From positions 1 to 64,000 of the forward strand of contig NMRA01000248.1 in NCBI GenBank assembly GCA_002633005.1: a stretch of DNA of 64,000 nt, in the 5' to 3' direction. The position numbers were made by a program, and so were the translations under genes. Shown one piece after another: positions 2,664-52,893 of the stretch (position 1 is the stretch's first letter; each line of letters begins with the position of its first letter). The DNA comes from Phoronis australis (taxonomy: Eukaryota; Animalia; Phoronida). The notes under the pieces are model-generated. The model worked only from the letters and a program-made list of their open reading frames with translations. It was not told where the DNA came from and made no database searches.

Positions 2664-3299
2664 CTCTTATGGGTAACTACAACACAGGTAGTTGACAAAT
2701 ATTGTTTTAAATTGTTTCTCTTCTACTGTTTTCTCGCATACCCCCAACCCTGCACGTATGCCGATCACCAAGGGTTCACCGACGCCTGCAAATTAGGGGG
2801 GTACCCCTGCTGCCTACGGCCCTAAATCGAAGTACAAGATGAGAAGTTAAATTCTACCTCTGCTGTCTCAAAACTGGTATTTCACCATTTAATCGTTTTT
2901 TACGCTTGTGTTCGGTAATTTTTATCGGTGTAGCGGAAAGAAAGTGACACACCACGCCCACGTCTAGGATGGTTAATTTGNCTCTTATGGGTAACTACAA
3001 CACAGGTAGTTGACAAATATTGTTTTAAATTGTTTCTCTTCTACTGTTTTCTCGCATACCCCCAACCCTGCACGTATGCCGATCACCAAGGGTTCACCGA
3101 CGCCTGCAAATTATAGGGGTACCCCTGCTGCCTACGGCCCTAAATCGAAGTACAAGATGAGAAGTTAAATTCTACCTCTGCTGTCTTAAAACTGGTATTT
3201 CACCATTTAATCGTTTTTTTACGCTTGTGTTCGGTAATTTTTATCGGTGTAGCGGAAAGAAAGTGACACACCACGCCCACGTCTAGGATGGTTAATTTG
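2664..3299. repeat. Near-identical ~317-bp tandem duplication across a single N (probable assembly overlap or haplotype artefact)
   Basis: 2664-2980 matches 2982-3299 with only a few differences; N at 2981. Confidence 0.9.
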
Positions 3300-4599: not shown

Positions 4600-6622
4600 T
4601 CCGACGAACTCGCTTCTTTTTCGAAGCCAATTTACTATTCGGGAGTATTCGTCCGCAGCCTGCGTTTACTGTTTAAATTCCATAGGGGAAACAAAGTCTG
4701 AAGAGTGTAACAGTTTAGCAGTACGAATTTGGGAGTTTTCTATTGCTCACAACGTTTGGCGTAGTGCTTGTCACTGTCAGCGTAGTAACCTAGCTGATTA
4801 TGAGTCTAGGAATTATTTTTGTGATAACACTGAATGGATGTTGCATCGATCTGTTTTGATCAGATGACAAAAGAGTTGTTTCTCACTGAGATTGATTTGT
4901 TTGCTTCTGGGTTGAGAGGTTTGTGTCTTGGCGACCTGAACCTGGGGCAGAATTCATTGACGCTTTTTCAATGTGTTGGCATGGTCTCAATTTTTATGCT
5001 TTTCCGCCTTTCAATCTGATCTCCCGTTGTATACAGAAGGTTACAGTGGACCGTGCACAAGGTATTATGATAGTGCCTTATTAGACAACTCAAGTGTGGT
5101 ACCCCAGACTCATGAAAATGTTGGGTGCCAAACCTCTTGTGCTTCCGCAAGGAGTGCTGCGGATGCCAGTGACGGGTGCGAAACATCCATTGAGACAGAA
5201 GCTGGTGTTACTGGCAGTTCATTTATCAGGCGATCCGCAGAGGGTCCGGACCTTTCTAGCCGCACAAAAGAAGTTTTCTTGGCATCGTGGAGATGCAGCA
5301 CCAAGAAACAGTATGCCATGCATCTTGACAAATAGATACTGCACTGTCTTCAAAGACAAGCTGATCCCATTAATGTTGTTCTTCTTTATCTGCTGGATTG
5401 GATTTTTTGGCCGAATTAGTTAAAGATGGATTAAGTTACAGTTCGGCAAACTCTGCTTGTTGTGCTTTTATCTAATTTTGTTATATTTGAGCAGACTGAG
5501 TCTTTTAGCAGCCATCCACTGGTTGTGAAGTTTATGCGAGGGGTGTTTCAACTGAGACCTCCTGGAACCAAGTACACTCGTATATGAGATGTTAACCCGG
5601 TGTTGAATTATTTGAGAACTTTGTCTCCTGTGGCATCATTGACTTTAAAAGATTTAACATTGAAGCTTGTGGTGGTGATTGCTTTGTTGTCTGCACAGAG
5701 ATGTCAGACTATTCATTTATTGGATATTGCTGATGGTGAAAGATAAGTCAGGTTATAAGTTTGTTATTCGTTCACATGTGAAACAGAATAGAACAGGAAT
5801 ATCTCCTGTTGTTGTAAATTTGAAAGCTTATCCTCCAGATAGAAGACTCGGTGTTTATACTGTGCTTAAGGAATACTTGAATCGCACTTCTCGGATTCGA
5901 GGGTTGCGGTCACGGTTGTTCATTATTTATGTGAGGCCTTATCATGCAGTGACTGTAGACGCAATGAGGCGTTAATTGGATTAAGGTTGTCGTGTGGAGG
6001 GCAGGTATTGATACTTCCCAGTTTGCCGCTCATAGTTCTAGAGCAGCCAGTGTGTCATCTGTCAATCAACGTTCAGTGCCAATTTCTACAATTGTGGCCA
6101 CAGCTGGATGGTCATGTGCATCTACCTTTGCTCGGTTATGTGATAAACCAATTGGTGTTTCTGATGATTTTGCCTCTACGTTGTTGAATGATGTGGCTAT
6201 GAATAAATGATTATTGATTTGGAACATTGTTGTTTCTGAATATGCACATCAGTTGCTTTAAAGTCTCATGGAACCGTATTATGCGTATTCCTACGCAGGA
6301 TTTTGAAATTAAACGAAACTTCACTAAATTGAAGTTTGATTGTAATTCTGCGTAGGAATATTAGCATAATAGAGGTTACATGCCCGCCTCATAGGTTTCC
6401 TTCCCATGTTGGTGAGATGTTTGTTTGAGTTGGGGTATTATTTTGGGTGCGGCGTAGAGCTGTTCGCACAGGTAATTTTGGTCTGATGATGTATACTCAA
6501 CTTTGAAGAATGGTTCGGTTATGCGTAGTGCGCTCTCGCATGTAACCTCTATTATGCTAATATTCCTACGCAGAATTACAATCAAACTTCAACTTAGTAA
6601 AGTTTCATTTAACTTCAAAATT
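4600..6622 (+). mobile_element. 5'-truncated, degenerate DIRS1-like tyrosine-recombinase retrotransposon
   Basis: RNase H tail (IWEFSIAHNVW...NLADYESR), methyltransferase-like motifs (EWML, IDLFAS, YAFPPF at ~4995-5012) and tyrosine recombinase (HVKQNR, AHSSRAAS...AGWS...TF) ending at ~6210, followed by the terminal inverted-repeat structure. Frameshifted; left limit approximate. Confidence 0.9.
6300..6621. repeat. DIRS 3' terminal inverted repeat pair (ICR/ITR region)
   Basis: 6300-6383 is the reverse complement of 6538-6621 (84 bp, 4 mismatches by eye). 6278-6298 is a further partial direct copy of 6551-6573. Confidence 0.9.
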
Positions 6623-6817: not shown

Positions 6818-6950
6818 CAGTAACACCAGGACCTACGCTAGGACCTCGCTAAAAAGCAAGACTTCGCGAGATTACGCGAGATATTTTCGTGTATTTTAAA
6901 GAACTCGTGATTTTGGTTAGATTTTTCTAGTCGCGAGACAGCTACTGAAC
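6818..6950. mobile_element. Copy of the 35075-35213 MITE family
   Basis: Shares ACGCTAGGACCTCGCTAAAAAGCAAGA-TTCGCGAGATTACG and the end CTACTGAAC. Confidence 0.7.
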
Positions 6951-7426: not shown

Positions 7427-8747
7427 TCGTCTGCCATTACGGGAGTATATTAATATAAAAAATGTCGGATGACAATCCCGGCCCTCTTGCCCCCTGGTGT
7501 TCTGTTATAGCACTAATGATAGTGATTTGAGTCATTAACTGTGACATAACGTGCAGGAAATCATTATACTGTCACCACTCGCCAGATTTGTAACGGAAAT
7601 ACTAAAATGCTGTAATAAGGATGGTAACTATACAGGAAGTCTGAAACACCAAGTCCAAAGATCGTTCCTGCACATCTTCCCAATCTGTCTCTCAAGAAAC
7701 TTTCTTTCTCTCGTGGAACCTCTAGGAGTTGGAAAAGCAATCGGCACAGTCGGTTTAGTTTCCACGAAGAATCAGAGTGAGGATTGTCATCTTGAGGCAC
7801 ATCCTAAATATTCTGTGCAATTGGTTACAGCTCATTAAACTATGGATCTGGTTTTTCGAATTGCCCATCTAAAGCAATTCCTTCTCACCATCAGACGCAG
7901 AGATCATATTCCCACTGCGTTTCGTGATGACCACTGGGTTTTCTGGAATTGAACGTTTCCTTTCACAAGATTTACGAATTTTTCACTAAAACCTCGCGAC
8001 CAACATAAAAATCACTTGGTTGTATTATTTCGTTTTTGATTTTCGTCTTCGTAATAGTTATTGTAGAGTTACTTTTGCTTCATGTTGGAGTGTGAGCGTG
8101 AAAGAGAGCGTGAAAGTCCTTCCCCTTTCCCCTGTCATTCACCCCCTTTCATAATGATAATATGTTTATATTACGCCCAATTTTTACTACTTTCTTTTTT
8201 CTTTTGTTGTAATAATTTTCATATTACTATCATTGAAGGGCTGTGCAGTTGGGGTTAGTCACCCCCAGCCAAATCCAAATTACCATTTCTGGGTGAATAT
8301 ACGTATTGGCAGAAAAAACTTGGTTGTACATAGTTGGGTTTGCCTGTGTGTCTTTTCATCGTTATATTCTGGTTTGGAGGGTTCAATTTAGGAAGAATGT
8401 GAGTGGTGCTAAGCCGGTCGTTGCGTGTGGTGTGCTGCGACAGGTTCTGAGGAAGGCTTGAAAAAGGCGTTCCTTTACCCTTTGCAACCTTGATGTGCTT
8501 CTTCAGAGTCCGTACACTTTTTCCACTTCCCCATTCGCCCTCAGCGACACCGCAGTCACCTTTCAATGATTGAAATAAATCACATTTTCAAATCTAGCAA
8601 ATTACTCACTGTTGAATCACAGGCCTCTGTCAATCTTTAGGGCTTCAGGAGTACCAAAGGTCGCAAAGATTTGGGCAAGTTTAGGTTTGACTTTTGAAGC
8701 AAGTGGCAATCCAAGTGGTTCAACAATAGGATAGCGTGAACAGCAGT

Positions 8748-8913
8748 TGTAGAAAATTTCCGTGTCTCTGGTGGGACTTCAACCCAGGTTGCACGAGCGA
8801 CGGTCAAGCGCCTAAACCAGTCGGCCAAGAGGCAATTGCCACTTGGCAAGCGACTAAGAGAGGCTTTATCTGGCTGTACGTGTCGTCACAACCGGAAGTC
8901 ACGATTCACAACA
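8748..8913 (-). repeat. 3' LTR of the TRIM
   Basis: Copy of 9103-9268, immediately preceded on the minus strand by the polypurine tract. Confidence 0.92.
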
Positions 8914-8927
8914 CTACTCTCCCTTCC
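8914..8927 (-). other. Polypurine tract
   Basis: Minus strand GGAAGGGAGAGTAG directly abuts the 3' LTR. Confidence 0.85.
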
Positions 8928-9090
8928 GCGGAACAGGCGCGCTCCCTGGCTTTTAAATCTCAGCAACACCCTAGCGTCCTGGAACTTGCCATCAGCGACG
9001 CTCTCTTTGTGCTCAGAATCCAGCATTATCAGGTCGTTCCCTCTCCATCCGCCGCTTTACATCTCAGGGTTAATTGTGGATTTTTCCATA

Positions 9091-9101
9091 GTTGGGCGCC
9101 A
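9091..9101 (-). other. Primer-binding site, tRNA-Lys(CUU)-type
   Basis: Minus strand TGGCGCCCAAC, complementary to the 3' end (...GUUGGGCGCCA) of eukaryotic tRNA-Lys(CUU), 1 nt from the LTR end. Confidence 0.85.
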
Positions 9102-9102
9102 A

Positions 9103-9268
9103 TGTAGAAAATTTCTGTGTCTCTGGTGGGACTTGAACCCAGGTTGCACGAGCGACGGCCAAGCGTCTAAACCAGTCGGCCAAGAGGCAATTGTCACTTG
9201 GCAAGCGACTTAGAGAGGCTATATCTGACTGTACGTGTCGTCACAACCGGAAGTCACGATCCACAACA
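9103..9268 (-). repeat. 5' LTR of the TRIM
   Basis: Minus strand reads TGTTGTGGATCG...AGAAATTTTCTACA and is followed after 1 nt by the PBS. Confidence 0.92.
9129..9182 (-). promoter_or_regulatory. tRNA-type (type 2) internal Pol III promoter in the 5' LTR; second copy at 8774-8827
   Basis: A box TGGCCGACTGG (9182-9172) and B box GGTTCAAGTCC (9139-9129), the latter within a T-arm-like hairpin TGGG-TTCAAGT-CCCA. The 3' LTR B box reads GGTTGAAGTCC. Confidence 0.82.
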
Positions 9269-12200
9269 CAGTCAGTGATTTGAAGAATGATTTCTCTGTC
9301 GATAATGGAGAATTCTTTTAAAGGTTGCTCAGTGGGCTTTAGAAGTTCACGGCTGTGTACAGGTTTAGTTACCTGGCACAGTGAACCAGATTTTACAGTT
9401 TGCCCTAACAATCGATTCACTAATAAGAACTAAACGTTCTCTTTCATTAACACTGTCGTCTTCACAATCCCCAAAAGTCTTTAACAAGCGATGTCGAGAG
9501 TTTTCAGTTGAAGAAATGCTAGGACCATGACGCCATTCGACTCACTGTGAGATGTGCAGTTAATTTCAGCTTCGGAGCGAGAAACGTCAGCTAAGCTTAC
9601 GCCAGAAATGGGTTGTGCCAATTCCTGCAAGATATTCGATTACAGCTTGCAGTACTTGATCAGAGGTAGTTCTTGCTTCGATATCGCGAAGCTTCATCGC
9701 GTTTGAGACGTCATGTGCTATCTGCTGCATTCTCAATACCCGGTTGATACTCAACACCGAAACGATACTTCTGCAGATCCATCAAATAGCCTTGTAATAC
9801 GTCTGACAGATGGCTTGCATGTGCAATTGTTGAACAGGGGTACCAACTGTTGACCACCAGTAACAATTTTGAAGTATTTTCCAAACAGATACAAGTGATA
9901 TCACTTGATGGCCTAGTAGATCGACAAGGCTTCTCAATCAATTTGCGCATACGGTAGATGATTAGTTACAGCTCGCATAGTGAAACAGGTCTGATGTGTG
10001 ATCATTTGGTCCTTTCAGAATGCGTCCATACAAAAACATTCCTGATTTCAACAAAAGACTCTGTTCTTCATCATTCCACTTCCATGGTTGGACTCTGTGA
10101 GTCAGCATTCTCACGGGCCTGGTGACGGTAGCACAATCTCGGATATATCGTGAGCAGAACAATGCAGAGCTTAAGAAGCTTCTTTCTTCGGGAACATTGG
10201 TAGTTGGTCTTAGAGAATGGATAAGTTCAATTTTCTTTGAATCAGACGACATGTTTAAAGGAAATCATACTCAAGGTGCAAAAAACGACACTTCTGGGGG
10301 TTGACTTTCAGGTTACGATGAGCTTGAGATATTCAAGCTCTTGTCGCAGGTGCCTGTCATGCTCATCTAAGTTTCTTTCCGCAATGCAGATGTCATCGCA
10401 TACATTCTTCACTCCTGGAATGCCAACTATTGTTTCACTTATAATTTTCTGGAAAACCTCAACAGGACACGACATTCTTAAGTCCAGCCCCTTGTATCGC
10501 CGCAGTCCAGTATGGGTAGATAATGTAGTTAGACTCCGCGATTAAAAATTGAGTGAGATCTGATGTTAGCCATGTTTAAAATCAATCTTACTGAACACCC
10601 GGCACCCTTTAAGGTCAGCTACGACGTCACCGATCGCTGGGACGATGTGACGCTCTCGCACATTCGTACGTCATCGGAGTTGGTATCTTTAGGAACTACA
10701 ACAATAGATGATATTCAGGTAGTTGGATCATCTGCTCTTTCTATGACGTCATCGTCTTCGAGCTCTTTCAGTTTCTCTTCTAACTTGATGCAAACTTAAA
10801 ACGGAATTTTGCTGAAAGGTCGATAGACTGGTGGATTCATTGACATGTACTCTAACGGGTTCCCACTTACGTGATCCGGTTGCCTCTGTTATCTAAGGGA
10901 ATACCTAGAGAACACTGTTGTCTTTTGAAGAGTCAGATATAGCATTTGGGACCTGCAAGAGCTTCGGATCTTGAAAAGTCGTCCAGCTTAGAAATGAGAC
11001 GCAAGGTCCCTTGGTTATTAACATGCCACAAACGATCGACGGTGGTTCGAGACCGCTTTAGCTTTAGACTCACCCACAAGGTGGTGTTGACATATACTGG
11101 TATACCTTTGAAGTAGAATTTTTCAGGCGGAGGCGATTAGGAATCTTCATGTAGTAGATGAGGTGGAGTATTTTTACAGAATCTTCAATGCAAGGGAACG
11201 GGTAACCTTCAATGAACACAAGTCGAACTGTGGCTTGTTTCTCACTTCATTGGTTACGACGAACAAGTTCTTATCTTTGGTTGCCACCATAGGCTATGGT
11301 ACATGGATCGCCATTTCCGTATATTTCAATGGACGAAATCTGTGAACTTACGCATAAGCCGTGAGTCATTATTCACTAGCGACATCTGGCAGATATGGCA
11401 CGTATTACTTCTGGCAAGTATGTCGTCTGCTAATCATGGTCATTTCGTCGGGATTTGGATCAGCGATTTTGCACAATTCACATCCACATTTAAATAAATT
11501 GAACGCTCATAAAATGTTAACTTCATAAATAAAGCTCATACTAATACTCCAGAAATAAGCACCAGGCCTACTCAAAAAACAATCTCGCACTTCAACAGCA
11601 GTTTACTTGACGTTTCATTTTAAGCTCGAATGCACATCGGTACCGCTCAAACTTTTCTAAACTCTAGTGTTGGAAGACAGTCGAGCACCCAGTTGATACA
11701 TACATACATACATATATATATATGTACTGGAGAGACAGATAACAAAGGGGTTTTGGAAATCAGTGGCAACCAGGGCGCCTATAGTCGGGCAAAAAGGTAT
11801 GTCATAGGATCTCTCGACCGGTTCAAGTACGCCTATGGTCAATGCCGATTGGTAGAAAAACAGGAAAACGATTTTCCTTATATCCTAAAAGGTATAGTCT
11901 TGTTTAAAAAAAAAGCCCCTGGAAATTAACATGTGTATGGGCTTGTACCGAAAAGCTTCTAAAACAGGGATTCTAAATTCCAGTAGATGCCAGTCTCAAA
12001 TGAAACAGTCGAAATTTGTACCCTGAACTTAAACGCATTTACACTTGTATTTTATCCACCATCTGATTTCATGCTTTGCAAGATGTCTATAATAACGTGC
12101 CACCACCTTGGAGCAGACAATTTGCAAAGACAATTCTTCTGTTTGTCTTCGTTTTGGTCCAGTAATTGACCTATCGCAAGTTCCGTACCCTTGCGAATAG

Positions 12201-16857: not shown

Positions 16858-17829
16858 AGTGTACACAACATGACTCTAGTACCTCAAAATAAATTTTATT
16901 ATTTTATGTTACTTGATTTCAGTGCCTTTAGTGCACAGCTCATAAAGAAACACGCAAAAATTGAAAAAAGTAATAATTATGTACTACGTCATGGGTTGAA
17001 CCCAAGTCGTTCGCAATACTGTTCGGATCAGAGACAAAGTGTATAGAGTGAAGAGAAAGCAAAGTACATTTAGCGTCGAGAAGGTTCGTAGAGGGATCAA
17101 AAGATGTGTTTCCGGAGGCTGCAGCAACAGCAGCCAGGCGGAAAACGTCTCGGTGTTCCGAAGGACACCAAAGTTGCGCAGAAGTGGCATGGCTTCGTGC
17201 GCCGAACGAGAGTGTGGCCACTGTGGGACGTCATCGTGGACCAAGCGATTCGGTCCGGGGCCACTCTGTGTTCTGCCAACTTTGAGGACTCGTGTTTCGA
17301 CTCCAGTCACAGGAGACGTTACGATGAAGGCCTGGTTCAATAAGGGACAATATTTATCATTCGGAAACATCAGCTCTTAATTCAGGAAAGTCTGTTGGAT
17401 GACTGGGTTGACTCGCCGAGCCCGAGGCCGCTTCTCTCGCGGGAGGATCCAGTTCATAAGGCTCAAAGTAGAAAAGTACGCAGCCGGAAGCACATTAAAC
17501 TTGTTGTCGCTTTCGTCCAACCCCATTTCCTCATCCTGGCCACCATTCCCGTACGTTTCTTCATAGTATTCGTTCAATTCTTGCTCATAATCGTCGTCAC
17601 TTTCAAATTCATTGGTCTCCGCCATTGTTCAATGCTAGTCACCGATCTCTTGTGTTCAACCCATGACGTCACATGGCGGGAAATGTGAAAATTGGCAAAA
17701 TTGAAAGAAAAATCAAAATTTCGAGCTAATTACACAAAATAAACATGGGTTTAGCTAAATTTTACGTCATGCATTTAGTCTGTGGCCACCGGTAATTCAA
17801 AATGTGCAAAAATCCATGGTGTGTACTGT
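16858..17829 (+). mobile_element. Kolobok-like DNA transposon, internal-deletion derivative
   Basis: TTAA on both flanks (16854-57, 17830-33) and a 15-bp TIR with 12/15 match. Frameshifted THAP on + (RCVSGGCSN...PKD...KW...LCSANF, ~17102-17300). A convergent acidic ORF start on - (17625 down) has FYFEP at 17473-17459 after a frameshift. Confidence 0.7.
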
Positions 17830-27792: not shown

Positions 27793-27875
27793 CACGTGTT
27801 CCCATTTAAAAGACAGGGCATCTCACGTAATCTCGACAAGTCTTGCTTTTAAGCGAGGTGCTAGCGTTACTGAAC
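27793..27875. mobile_element. Partial inverted copy of the 35075-35213 MITE family
   Basis: TCTTGCTTTTAAGCGAGGTGCTAGCGTTACTGAAC is the reverse complement of the family left end. Confidence 0.65.
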
Positions 27876-35074: not shown

Positions 35075-35213
35075 GTTCAGTAACGCTAGGACCTCGCTAA
35101 AAAGCAAGATTTCGCGAGATTACGTGAGATATTGCCGTGTATTTTAAATGAGAACACGTGACTTTGACTAGGGTTTAGCTAGGTTTTAGCGTAGGTCCTA
35201 GAGTCTACTGAAC
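35075..35213. mobile_element. Short MITE family, full copy
   Basis: TIR GTTCAGTA-(N)-CTAGGACCT; related copies at ~6818-6950 and ~27793-27875 (inverted). Confidence 0.75.
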
Positions 35214-39384: not shown

Positions 39385-39935
39385 TTTAAAAAAGACAGTG
39401 CAGGTGGTCTGATGTCATTTACTGTGCATCAGACGTGCGCAAGCCTCATGGTTGGGCCCATTGCACAAAACACCTGAGCAAAAGCACGAAAGCCCAATTA
39501 TGGCTCCTCGTGAAGAAAGTTTTCAAGTCTGCCAGTCTCCTTTAGGAAAACAGACAGACGTTTCCATTTGTTGCCATGCACTATATGTTGTAGGCATGTA
39601 ACAGTGCCATCCAGTAGGTTGCTCCTTAGCCTATGAAAAGGTGGGCAAGACTCTACCAGGTGTTTAGGAGATTCTACGTCAGTACCACACTCAGGACACA
39701 CAGGACTCCCCATATGCCAAGTAATGTGTCTGTGTCGGGCTGGGTTGCAGTGACCCGTCAAAATTTGAATGACGTGTCTTATACCCAATCTATCTAGACT
39801 CAGAAGGCTTTTTGAACCTTTTGGTTCGATCACGTTGGGAAAATTATCCTTGGTCTCTCTGCAGGAGTTAAGTGATGCCCACTAGGCTGCTGACTGGGTA
39901 TGTACCCAGTTGCGTATACTCATCCTGCAACACCG
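39385..39935 (-). mobile_element. 5'-truncated non-LTR retrotransposon 3' end (LOA/R1/I-group-like)
   Basis: ORF 39498-39833 contains ILTGH...CPECGTDVESPKHLVESCP, the C-terminal CCHC motif of LINE ORF2; short 3' UTR follows. Limits approximate. Confidence 0.8.
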
Positions 39936-42900: not shown

Positions 42901-43321
42901 ACAGGTAACCTACTGCTACAATCCTGGCCCCGGCCTCTGCTGGGAGAATAATGGTGTTGACTATTTTAACCAAGTGCGTGTACACGATGATACAAGGACG
43001 CTGTTTCTATAACACATTCTTATTACCGTCACACAAATACTGTTGAAACAGTGGCAACATTAAAAACCAGTCGGTAGTAAATAAACAGGCAAGGCACAAC
43101 GCTGACTGCACAGGCTATTTAACCTATCGTATGTGGGGATTTCTAAACTAATGTAGTGGGAACGTAACAGCAGTGAGCAAGTCAAGTATTTCAGAGGTCA
43201 ACAGTGATTTTTTTGTGACTCAAGTAAAGGTCAAACTTTCTGTTGCTAAATGAATTTCACTGAATTGAATCGACGACAAAAATTCATGTATACCTATATA
43301 TCCTTCTAATGCATCTGTGGG

Positions 43322-44022
43322 AGATTGTCACCCACCTTTACAGCTCATCATATTATGTAACTTTTGTATTTATCGATATCTGTCGTAGTTTAGTTTGCCA
43401 TAATATTTATGACTTTTTATCTCACCTACACGTTTTGTTTCACTGTAAACCAGCTTCGGTGTCTCTTCGCAGTTAGCGCATACAAATATTATTTAAATAT
43501 TAAATTATTTTATGTACGCTATACTACTTCGTCCTCATTATCATACTGTTTGGATTTTCGGGTCAGTGACCCTCTTTGTTCTACGATTATTGGTTTAGTT
43601 GTACCACGTGATCTCTGTCTTGTCGCAACACTGGGCCATCGTCCACAACTATCTTCAAGTTTCAAGTTGTCAGTCAATTTCTATTTCCCTCTCTCCCTCA
43701 AACCAATTTTCTTTCCTTCCCTTTACACTTAATTTTTCATGTCGCTGTCCGGTGTTGCTGTGTTGCTTCCGCTTATTGTTACTTATCTTTCTAGTTCAAC
43801 ACGTGTGTATACATTCATTGCTTCATTGGACCTCCCATACTGCTGTTTGTCCGGCAGATTGTCACCCACCTTTACAGCTCAACATATTGTATAACTTTTG
43901 TATTTATCGATATCTGTAGTAGTTTAGTTTGTCATAATATATATGACCTTTCATCTCTCCTACACGTGTTGTTTAACTGTAAACTAGCTTCGCTATCGCT
44001 TCGCAGTTAGCGCTTAAAAATA
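43322..44022. repeat. Diverged direct repeat pair (~167 bp)
   Basis: 43322-43488 and 43856-44022 both start AGATTGTCACCCACCTTTACAGCTCA; roughly 85% identical by eye. Confidence 0.85.
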
Positions 44023-44500: not shown

Positions 44501-44713
44501 GTTACCCTTTCTTCAAGTCCATACAGGTATATCCGGGTACCTGCATTCTCCTCACCCAGTTTCCCAACGGATATTCCCCTGCTCCAATTGTTCTCAGGTA
44601 TAAGCTACCACTGGTTCTCATGCCAATGTCTTTATGTTCACCTGTCCTGACGTTGAACCGGCTCAAAGTTCTGGACCCCAATAGTCCTTGTTTCCAAAGC
44701 TCGATACTAACTA

Positions 44714-45711
44714 AACACCTCAACAAAAGTTTGGAAATTTGTGTTTACTCATCCGTGTTTTCATTACTTTTGGTTGGAATATTTGCATACCAATGGAACG
44801 CTCAGTCAGTTCTCTTTCCAACAACACCATATTTTGTCAATAAATTTTTGATTTTTGATATGCTCAGTAAATTTACTGCCACAGAGGGCTTGGTCTCAAA
44901 GTGAATGTTACAAATTTCTCTGTTTTTGTCAAGCTCTGTCAACACCTGTATTGTGCTGGTGATTAACACCGAGAGGTAAATACCAAAATTGTGAGACACT
45001 GATTGATAGCATGGAACCCATTCTGGTAGCAGGCTCAGTATAAATCGCAACTATGCAAACTGTGCTTGGAGTGCCCAGCTTGCAGCTTTCTTCAGATGTA
45101 AAAATCTGGTGTTCTGGCTACAAATGGAATGACCCGCATGCAGTCCAGACATGAACCCTATCGAACACCTGTGGGACCAACTCGGACATGCTGTAGTACG
45201 TGCGTGAGTGTCCAACACAACCACTTTGGCTGATTTGCTTACTCAGGAGTGGAATGCCATCACACGGCAACGCGTGGCCAGGCTAGTAAAGATGTACACT
45301 GAAGTGACTGCCAATGGTTCGTCAACCCTATACTGAGAAGACTATCACTGTTGTCTATCAGTCAAATTATCACTACAGTCTACCAGTCTGTTGTTCAACA
45401 AATAATTAATGTTTAAGTGCTTCCAAACTGTTATAAGTTTTTATTACCACGAAACCAGCTTATTGGAAAGCTGAATGGTCAAACTTGAATACACATTTAG
45501 CTAAAACTGAATTTGCAACATTTACTTTGAGACCAAGCCCTCTTTGGCGACTAAGTTACTAAACATAATAAATATTTTTAGACGAAATGTGGTATCGTCG
45601 GAAAGGGTAATGACCGGGCTTTTCATTGGTATGCAATAAGATTTAATTAAAGTTAAAATAATAAAAACACGGGCGAGTGAACACAAATTTCCAAACTTTT
45701 GTTGAATTGTT
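44714..45711 (+). mobile_element. Tc1/mariner deletion derivative with ~210-bp TIRs
   Basis: TA flanks; TIRs ~44714-44925 and ~45510-45711 (TCAACAAAAGTTTGGAAATTTGTGTT outer, GAGGGCTTGGTCTCAAAGT inner); transposase C-terminal remnant PACSPDMNPIEHLWDQL at ~45133-45183. Confidence 0.9.
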
Positions 45712-46604
45712 TAGTTCCATTAATATAATTTGTGTGTCATTCCTAGTTTCTTTATAACGGCGTGTCGATTAAGTCTTTCATATTTAGTATGGCAGGACAT
45801 TGACGTAGCATGTTTCCCTTGTATGGAAAATGTGACCTTTGACCTCTGATGTAAAAATAACATTGGCGATTTCAAGCAGCAGTCAGTCCGACTTCTTTGA
45901 GCGCATGCGCAAATATATTATTAAGAGCAGAGAATTTGAAAACTGTACTGGGATGAAAGAGTTAAATATTTCATCTGTGTTTCAGAAATAGTGAATCTCA
46001 CATTCTTTTCTAAAAATTCTTGCAGTATTCAAAGTGAACAACTCACGTTTGCATCCCCAAGAATTAGATTCGCTAGGACCTGCTTAAAACGCTTTTTTAG
46101 TTTTCCGCGTTACATGTATCTTTAAACTACCACTGTAGTGTCTTTCTTGGCAGTTTCAATTGCGAAACCCCATAGAAGACTTAATGAAAATAGAATCTTC
46201 TCACGCGTATTGAACCACTGATCATTTCGAATAAACGCAGTACGTATTACGCATTTTCATTTTACCAATTACGGACAAAAGGAAACATTTTATTGAGAAA
46301 CGACTAATGCATTCTGGATTACGTACTAATGGAACCAGTTAGGAGACCAAATGTATCAAAGGAGAAATGAGACGGAATTGCACACAGAGGCAGATGTGTC
46401 TGGTATGGTCCGGGATAGCTCGAAAATCTTGTAAACTTGGGCCGACAAAGCATAGTTTCCGGTCATGTCAAGTTAACTTTAGAGCGCAATTAGTTTCATG
46501 CCTCGGCCATTCTACTCGTCGCTGTGCACGCGATGCTGTGATTTTAACCGTTAGGTCGTTTAATATCCTATGATAGATAGATCTAAATGAGATCAATTTT
46601 TAAA

Positions 46605-51181: not shown

Positions 51182-52893
51182 AGGAGAATGCCATCCAAAA
51201 AACAACCTATTTTGTATCAATTTAGATCGAGTAGTTCTACTCCTTAACGGCACGTTCGGTTGCGTTACCTGACACTTGACGGCAGACGGAGGTGTTGAAA
51301 TTAACCAATGACGTAATTGGTTTCACACGCAGTCTGTTCAGCAGTTCACAACACGGGTTACTGGTGTCAGCTTATCGCTTGAATTCATCGTTTAGCACCA
51401 ATAAATCATCAAACTTCTACGTAAAACCCTTAAAAATAAACCGAGTTATTATAATAACGTGTTGTTTTATTTTGCTGTTACGGATTTACTGGTATTTGGA
51501 CACACCGTAGCCTACAAAGTTCGGCAGGCCGATTTACCAAGGTCCGTAGCAGGAGTTTGGGGTGTGTTCAGAGATAAATTCGAAGTATTCTTCTGTGAAA
51601 TATAGGCAGGAGAACTTAGACCTGTGTTGTTTATACTTGTGATATTTTTACTTCTAAACACACAAAACGCTTGTTATCCAGGCCAGTGGCTCAGAACACG
51701 ATCAGGCCCGTCGCGGCCGGTCTGACTCGTTATCCCGGCCAGTGGCTCGGAACCCGATCAGGCCCGTTGCGGCCGCCGGTACTGGCACGAACATAAACCA
51801 GCTTGAGTTGGAAAGTAAGCCTCCAGTCACAAAAAGACTATAATAGTGAGCCAAAGAAATAATGTGCACTTAATTATTTATGTGAATTAGCCACGAAACT
51901 GAAAATCTACTTACTTGTCTTGGGTCGCGAAGTCGGGTTCCCCTTCCACAAACCGTCAGGGCAAAGGTTGTTAATTTGAATAATGACTTGTATTTTAATT
52001 TTGTATTTCTAAATAAAAATTCCCCTAACATTAACATGTGACCATAGCATATAAAATCGAGTGATTGTTTCACAACAGCTTTCTGTCAACAAACACTGAA
52101 TTAGCATGCGCTCACACGGCCTCGGTGCCCGGTCAATTACCTTTGTTGCCGGCATCAAAAGCCGGCAACGCAGTGGTTTATTCATTGCTGGCTTCTCAAA
52201 ACATTTGCACTCACGAGCACTCCAAGGCATTACAAATTGTATCCAATGAGACAGACTTTGTTTCAGTTTCATATAAGCATTGGTTAGGATGAGAATAATT
52301 CATTTTGAAACAGAACGCAGAATAATAAACGTCTACATGGCAACTCGCCGGGCGCCAATCCCGACTTAGTCAAGAGCTCATCCGACGAAGACTTCACGGG
52401 TCGGATCGTTAGGTTTCACAGGCTATCAGTTCGAACCGGAATACACTGATCAAGAAATACTAGAGAGGCACTGTGAATTAACATGCAAAGCAACGGAAAG
52501 TATGGATAGTTCTTTGGTAAGTCGGAATTCGTCAGAGAAATCACTGTCGGCGAAATGCCGGTCACAGACACGGAGACGTTTCACGGCCTCACAATTGCTA
52601 TCAACAGCGTACCTTTCATTCTTCACTACCGCGAGCCACTTCCTAAGCATTTCGGGCTCCCGAGGAAGTCGATAAAACGATATACCCGCTTTCTTCGCAG
52701 CTTCATAGTTCGGAAGTGGGAATCATGCACCGCAATATAGCGGCATTCATTCTGCAGACGAGCCACTGACGTCGCTGCGTCGTTTCTCACCTTCCTAACA
52801 GGTTAACGCGACCCCTCTCGGCAAGGTGAGGTCGACCGTATAAGAGGTGATGTGTATATAGACCGATTAAGACGGTAAAAAAGACATTCTCCT
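51182..52893 (-). mobile_element. Kolobok-like DNA transposon derivative
   Basis: TTAA on both flanks (51178-81, 52894-97) and TIR AGGAGAATG(C/T)C. THAP remnant on - (SFYRLP...RKWL...RVCDRHF, ~52750-52530) and convergent GYQFEPEYT on + (52421-52447). Confidence 0.72.

Follow-up and report, generated by a model that had tools for sequence, protein, structure and literature searches.

The 64,000-nt stretch of Phoronis australis DNA analyzed here (contig NMRA01000248.1, positions 1 to 64,000, hereafter the window) contains a 521-bp element at 8748-9268, with its sense strand on the minus strand, that belongs to the Helenus type of miniature terminal-repeat retrotransposons (TRIMs). The analysis confirmed one true, complete copy of a non-autonomous LTR (long terminal repeat) retrotransposon. 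The reading that we favor, with a probability of roughly 80%, is that this Helenus-type TRIM is transcribed by RNA polymerase III (Pol III) from tRNA-derived boxes in its LTRs and borrows the reverse transcriptase (RT) and integrase of a Gypsy element. The identity of the element as a Helenus-type TRIM is surer than this complete mechanism.

A preliminary description made from the letters alone had proposed a pair of 166-bp LTRs with nine differences, a 4-bp target-site duplication (TSD), a minus-strand PBS (primer-binding site) and PPT (polypurine tract), and a 189-bp non-coding interior. Sequence inspection and repeat comparison confirmed this layout. The two LTRs (8748-8913 and 9103-9268) have TGT..ACA ends on both strands and differ by six transitions and three transversions (Kimura two-parameter distance of 0.057, which gives no date, there being no host rate). 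CAGT is found at both edges. On the minus strand, the interior begins next to the 5' LTR with a single T followed by the PBS TGGCGCCCAAC (9101-9091), and terminates next to the 3' LTR in the PPT GGAAGGGAGAGTAG (8927-8914); each of the two motifs has a single exact match in the window. The longest ATG open reading frame of the element is just 46 amino acids. On the sense strand, runs of four or more T are found solely at LTR positions 158-161, once per LTR (T4). A sequence search of the element detected neither AATAAA nor ATTAAA, while a TATA/TAAA word is present at LTR positions 46-49. Repeat comparison showed no second copy of the TRIM in the window.

The element interrupts the integrase of a decayed Gypsy-type pol gene on the minus strand, whose decay is far more advanced than that of the TRIM it hosts. 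Using one RT piece as the query, we recovered the proteins P0001 and P0002, both bearing RT, RNase H and integrase domains. The decayed Gypsy pieces were missed by a Pfam scan and detected by tblastn, in which residues 322-1066 of P0001 matched 11219-9271 and residues 1063-1197 matched 8757-8365, with many stops. When the flanks were translated separately, the upstream part ended in LQITD and the downstream part read SRYPIV, the P0001 counterpart being FVDDYSRFP. The match continues to residue 1066 and resumes at residue 1069 in the same frame across a gap of 531 nt (521 + 4 + 6); therefore, the flanks are collinear and in one frame, as a 4-bp duplication demands. The collinear integrase flanks thus support the 4-bp TSD independently. 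The features of the element and its insertion target are as follows.

8365-8743, minus strand: decayed integrase core, downstream part, insertion target (tblastn, P0001 residues about 1067-1197, E 1e-26).
8744-8747, no strand: left TSD, CAGT (sequence; collinear flanks).
8748-8913, minus strand: 3' LTR, 166 bp, TGT..ACA (repeat comparison and sequence).
8753-8756, minus strand: T4 run in the 3' LTR, where Pol III is predicted to terminate the full-length RNA (sequence).
8762-8833, minus strand: tRNA-like unit of the 3' LTR, with A box at 8827-8817 and damaged B box GGTTGAAG at 8784-8774 (ARAGORN and pattern).
8914-8927, minus strand: PPT GGAAGGGAGAGTAG adjoining the 3' LTR (sequence).
8914-9102, minus strand: non-coding interior, 189 bp, with no T run of four or more on the sense strand (sequence).
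9076-9080, minus strand: TCCAC motif 10 nt past the PBS, which may be a second site of pairing with the primer tRNA or one arm of a small hairpin (sequence, comparison by eye, fold).
9091-9101, minus strand: PBS TGGCGCCCAAC, 11 nt, tRNA-Lys(CTT) (sequence and published PBS).
9103-9268, minus strand: 5' LTR, 166 bp, TGT..ACA (repeat comparison and sequence).
9108-9111, minus strand: T4 run in the 5' LTR; a full-length RNA made by Pol III would need to read through it (sequence; predicted role).
9117-9188, minus strand: tRNA-like unit of the 5' LTR, with A box at 9182-9172 and intact B box GGTTCAAGTCC at 9139-9129; ARAGORN possible pseudogene tRNA-Asp(GTC) (ARAGORN and pattern).
9269-9272, no strand: right TSD, CAGT (sequence).
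9273-11219, minus strand: decayed Gypsy-type pol, upstream part (protease region, RT, RNase H and start of integrase), with many stops and frame changes, insertion target (tblastn, P0001 residues 322-1066; P0001 domains).

To assess the distribution of the element beyond the window, four of the eight listed sequencing runs were examined. The stretch is present in four DNA runs, which come from one sample that is possibly the source of the window; the run index named no RNA run as containing it. In run X1, 358 contigs matched the element, of which 29 were at least 99% identical, 75 were 95-99%, 140 were 90-95% and 114 were less than 90% identical, with most between 85 and 95%. Contig depth, which is not a copy number, reached 79-1724 in LTR bins and 50-266 in interior bins, compared with 5-20 in the flanks. 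In the preliminary description, a lack of other copies with the same termini would have counted against the element; such copies were found: match break-offs fall on the LTR edges 9103, 8913 and 9268, both in X1 contigs, seven of which break at 9103 (flank agreement of 0.47), and in RNA reads (55 and 53 reads at 9103, 20 and 23 at 8913, and 16 at 9268). The element is therefore one copy of a diverged multi-copy family with common termini. Many family reads stop at an LTR edge with no interior, and the LTR unit thus occurs alone too. Such reads would also be produced by two neighboring SINE-like (short interspersed element) or solo repeats, or by a local duplication mimicking LTRs. We find this explanation scarcely credible: the PBS and PPT adjoin the inner LTR ends, the TSD brackets the pair and the integrase flanks are collinear. 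In addition, the interior is itself multi-copy according to X1 depth, and for Helenus, solo LTRs are expected and have been reported (available part of PMC10886601). The SINE-type tails on the LTR unit that the preliminary description had named as an argument against an LTR element were not seen.

The preliminary description also placed a tRNA-like stretch in each LTR. The A box TGGCCGACTGG lies at LTR positions 87-97 and the B box at 130-140, the latter being intact only in the 5' LTR (GGTTCAAGTCC) and damaged in the 3' LTR by a G in place of C (GGTTGAAG). A search for the combined A and B boxes, using the canonical consensus with one mismatch permitted in box A, gave one match in the window, in the 5' LTR, and none in 30 shuffles of the window or 2000 shuffles of the LTR. 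ARAGORN made no call in the window at the default threshold or at 95%. At 90%, its sole two calls were the LTR copies 9188-9117 and 8833-8762, both as possible pseudogene tRNA-Asp(GTC). A comparable call was obtained in only 3 of 2000 LTR shuffles. Since shuffled windows also give 0-3 calls each (19 over 30 shuffles), the score is meaningful at the LTR scale only. The tRNA-like stretch thus stood for both LTRs, with the reservation that the 3' B box is damaged. The remnant acceptor pairing proposed previously was recovered as well (5 of 7 pairs), and the claim that a proper anticodon arm is missing held in part, as ARAGORN draws a weak arm with a T.T mismatch, G.U pairs and a GTC loop. Overall, the boxes and the T-arm are preserved and the anticodon and acceptor arms are decayed. 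Folding of the tRNA-like unit, of the interior and of the predicted transcript gave stabilities no higher than those of shuffles, and the element had no Rfam match at the gathering score. The best full-length Rfam match at E≤10, Plastid-ycf2 (E 2 and 5.2, opposite strand), whose consensus we interpret as a tRNA in antisense, was too weak and was not used. The tRNA-like unit is a promoter-like remnant rather than a working tRNA.

The loose cloverleaf with its GTC loop raises the question of whether the tRNA-like RNA of the LTR could itself prime reverse transcription or work as a tRNA. This seems highly improbable, as the PBS has no complement in the 3' end of the unit but has one of 11 nt in host tRNA-Lys(CTT). 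The pseudogene status given by ARAGORN and the lack of an Rfam match also argue against it, and according to the available part of Kojima (PMC10886601), no such complementarity is found in Helenus.

A run of four T acts as a Pol III terminator. As this run occurs only at LTR positions 158-161 of each LTR, genomic RNA made by Pol III has to pass the first T4, and the second is where it can terminate. In the mechanism that we propose, the A and B boxes are the likely promoter for Pol III, which would start near position 80 of the 5' LTR. Pol III would at times pass the first T4, cross the T4-free interior and end at the T4 of the 3' LTR, giving, in addition to a short RNA of about 80 nt, a read-through product of about 437 nt whose R region measures about 80 nt. 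The RNA would be packaged by a Gypsy helper, and host tRNA-Lys(CTT) would prime on the 11-nt PBS and perhaps make a further contact at TCCAC. Plus-strand synthesis would be primed at the PPT, and the helper integrase would generate the 4-bp duplication. We infer the Gypsy nature of the helper from the PBS type and the TSD length.

We then sought family transcripts in three RNA runs carrying the same species label, searching 18-19% of each run. Matching reads numbered 357, 359 and 41 among 12.8, 11.3 and 11.0 million records, respectively. Only one read was at least 99% identical to the window copy, and none covered its flanks. The family reads look like LTR pieces within longer transcripts. 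Several results weigh against Pol III-driven mobilization by a Gypsy helper. First, 83% of the family RNA reads continue into unrelated sequence, in both orientations, and no pile-up of RNA starts or ends, and hence no discrete transcript, was seen in the three runs; this counter-evidence is weak because library selection is unspecified. Second, the LTR T4 precedes the PBS and could stop most Pol III transcripts prematurely. Third, the Rfam tRNA model has no match in the element at E≤10 or at the gathering score, and the cloverleaf is not favored by folding energy over shuffles (z of +0.7 to +0.9). Fourth, no helper was found: a P0001 search of viral contigs gave no relative, and the surrounding Gypsy has no recognizable LTR, PBS or gag in the window. 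Lastly, the TSD was read at a single site only, and run X1, whose contig depth is not a copy number, is possibly the window's own source.

Some of these results could also be explained if the element were a true TRIM in which the tRNA-like stretch is the passenger of an old SINE or tRNA insertion, transcription starting in U3 with RNA polymerase II or reaching the element as read-through of host genes. The position of the T4 before the PBS, the presence of family reads mostly inside longer transcripts in both orientations and the TATA/TAAA word are in line with this possibility, and the available part of Kojima (PMC10886601) notes that the use of Pol III by Helenus lacks experimental validation. 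In that text a terminator is not discussed for Helenus, the word occurring once, about Cassandra. We consider a passenger origin unlikely, because the boxes and T-arm have been kept despite the decay of the anticodon and acceptor arms, and the element has no poly(A) signal. Variation among copies points in the same direction. Among the 40 variants listed, out of 198, 25 lie in the LTRs; three of these 25 are within the A and B boxes, and all three shift toward the consensus (785/792 and 251/271 depth at A-box position 94, 148/159 at B-box position 134).

The comparison with published families relies on the available parts of Kojima 2024 (PMC10886601) and its supplement. There, Helenus (TRIMp3) is described as a TRIM of less than 1 kb with tRNA-derived sequence in its LTRs and conserved boxes A (TRGCY..YGG) and B (GGTTC). 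Every animal Helenus with a determined TSD has one of 4 bp, and the animal families are tied to Gypsy through PBS similarity. Six animal phyla are listed, and the class is believed to have arisen many times. The window element is shorter than 1000 bp, is non-coding, and has two LTRs, a PBS, a PPT and a 4-bp TSD, in a dispersed family with common termini. Both box patterns are present in its 5' LTR, and the B box of the 3' LTR carries one change. The connection that the preliminary description drew to Helenus, and to 4-bp TSDs in its animal members, agrees with the sequence and with this source. The Helenus size range includes the values found here (166, 189 and 521 bp for LTR, interior and element). 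Exactly the same 11-nt PBS occurs in 33 published Helenus families (61 exact occurrences in the supplement minus 28 in Fig. S2), and it is of the tRNA-Lys(CTT) type according to Fig. S2, the tRNA itself being given in the available part of PMC8216282. With Helenus-3_MyGa, Helenus-1_PiIm and Helenus-2_NVit, which have a tRNA-Lys(CTT) PBS, the element shares size below 1 kb, the tRNA-like LTR stretch with its boxes, the 4-bp TSD, the identical 11-nt PBS and a YCCAC motif after it. It differs by its A box, which starts with TGGCCGA, whereas animal Helenus LTRs mostly read T(A/G)GCTCA by eye. Comparison with the published consensus set was done by short-motif look-up and by eye in supplement parts 1 and 5-9, and by motif search only in parts 2-4; 8 of 11 short motifs were unmatched, and the listed matches of the other three had no homologous surroundings or were confined to the T-arm. 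Judged by these look-ups and by eye, the element likely represents a new Helenus family. The Helenus-type class was already published in 2024, and the element is a further family of it, not a new class.

Other known systems share part of this organization. The plant Cassandra elements (available parts of PMC7215508 and PMC10886601) are also TRIMs with Pol III-type promoter sequence in each LTR and are mobilized in trans, as would be the case here. They differ by their 5S-derived sequence (boxes A and C) and tRNA-Met-type PBS, and their Pol III transcription is reported as validated. Rfam gave no 5S match in the window element at E≤10 and its LTR unit is tRNA-like instead, and a Cassandra-type identity was thus rejected. 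The tRNA-derived SINEs (SINE2) likewise have a tRNA-like unit with A and B boxes as likely internal promoter. In the window element, this unit is found within two LTRs with a PBS, a PPT and a 4-bp TSD, and there is no tail of the kind found in long interspersed elements; a SINE2 identity was rejected on the presence of the two LTRs with PBS and PPT and the absence of a tail.

We further searched environmental sequences for related elements. A family-specific scan of metagenome contigs found no locus, and a generic scan for B box, LTR ends and PBS found none in viral contigs. The same generic scan returned 11 loci in metagenomes, 10 of which had no LTR pair. The remaining one (L011, positions 1402-1811 of a marine metagenome contig) is a complete Helenus-like TRIM of 410 bp, with 139-bp LTRs that are 86% alike and a TTTA TSD. 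The unit of its 5' LTR is called tRNA-Ser(GCT) by ARAGORN at the default threshold. It carries the same tRNA-Lys PBS, followed after 8 nt by CCCAC, and has no similarity to the window element. A scan for helpers with the PBS and YCCAC gave one locus, with neither an LTR pair nor a pol match. Nothing was found that links the dead Gypsy surrounding the TRIM to a helper role.

The motif that follows the PBS may be a new lead. TCCAC lies 10 nt past the PBS in the window element, and by eye, in supplement parts 5-9 of PMC10886601, YCCAC is found 6-14 nt further on in 30 of the 33 families with the exact PBS. CCCAT is found in one, and the other two, both nemertean, have no YCCAC and extend the PBS further instead. 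The background rate of YCCAC in the window is 1.2%; the families are related, and the contrast with 30 of 33 is thus not a p-value. The motif is common to wasp, bivalve and coelacanth families, the window element and the marine locus. CCCAC is the 3' strand of the primer's T-stem, so that opening of the acceptor stem could allow it to pair with the 5' strand. Paired by hand with the tRNA of PMC8216282, as available, the window copy would form five pairs, a mismatch and three pairs; most other copies differ at the mismatch site 9075 (65/77 depth), which would give nine consecutive pairs, three of them G.U. The candidate second site is thus 5-9 nt long. We tentatively propose that animal Helenus with a short tRNA-Lys(CTT) PBS use a split PBS, in which the 11-nt PBS pairs with the acceptor stem only and (C/T)CCAC invades the primer T-stem, a possibility that we regard as doubtful. 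The rival reading is that a local hairpin, rather than primer pairing, explains the motif: TCCA is predicted in a local hairpin in the window copy, CCAC is partly paired locally in the marine locus, and several published families have GTGG soon after the motif or at the PPT.

Precedents for a split PBS exist. In the available part of PMC1635307, the 11-nt PBS of Drosophila gypsy for tRNA-Lys,2 is accompanied by another site, which is for the anticodon and T stems and is dispensable for cDNA synthesis. That site is near the RNA 3' end, whereas the candidate here comes 10 nt after the PBS and measures 5-9 nt. Yeast Ty1 and Ty3 also have split primer-binding sites, the bipartite PBS of Ty1 enclosing a small loop (available part of PMC5371799). 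We set aside the tRNA-His families as support: 5 of 15 bivalve families carry a matching CCTGG, which forms an arm of a local hairpin in two or more of them. A tRNA-Lys gene search of viral contigs returned 26 loci, and none of the four tested had a tRNA gene. No mention of the YCCAC motif was found in the available text of Kojima (PMC10886601) or in the open literature searched, which covers neither subscription papers nor Repbase entries.

The rest of the window contains other repeats and domain remnants. A THAP domain is encoded at 52453-52722 on the minus strand (Pfam E 2e-9), the sole match above the cut-off among 316 open stretches and 11 chosen ones, with a weaker THAP-like remnant at 17092-17340 (E 0.008); a search found no longer homologs of the THAP domain. 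At 43319-44022, two 170-bp direct repeats are 89% alike and 534 bp apart; by eye, they show neither clear TG..CA ends nor a PBS or TSD. Two inverted-repeat pairs, at 44709-45716 (about 210 bp, 76%) and 6300-6621 (84 bp, 95%), resemble miniature inverted-repeat transposable elements or the ends of DNA transposons. A repeat family of about 85 bp has three dispersed copies (6835-6915, 27793-27875 and 35075-35166). A 317-bp head-to-tail duplication at 2664-3299, 98.7% identical with a single N between its copies, is possibly an assembly artefact. At 39501-39881, a remnant is left of the 3' end of the open reading frame of a non-LTR retrotransposon (zf-RVT, E 0.02, below the cut-off). CpG observed/expected is 0.94 across positions 1-64000, with no depletion; taken with the THAP domains and the 4-bp TSD, this value is suggestive of a host among the invertebrate animals.

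The value of the element is modest: it adds one further clean family, whose A box departs from that of most animal Helenus in print and whose TSD is supported by the interrupted gene. Its layout predicts RNAs of about 80 nt and about 437 nt, which makes the passage of a Pol III transcript through the T4 of the first LTR testable. The conserved downstream motif bears on how an 11-nt PBS primes, as it suggests that the primer is contacted a second time. If the split PBS is true, it would imply one ancestral interior or one helper lineage for these families and would provide a sequence tag for tracing the helper. Helenus would have a wider range if the host phylum is not among Kojima's six.

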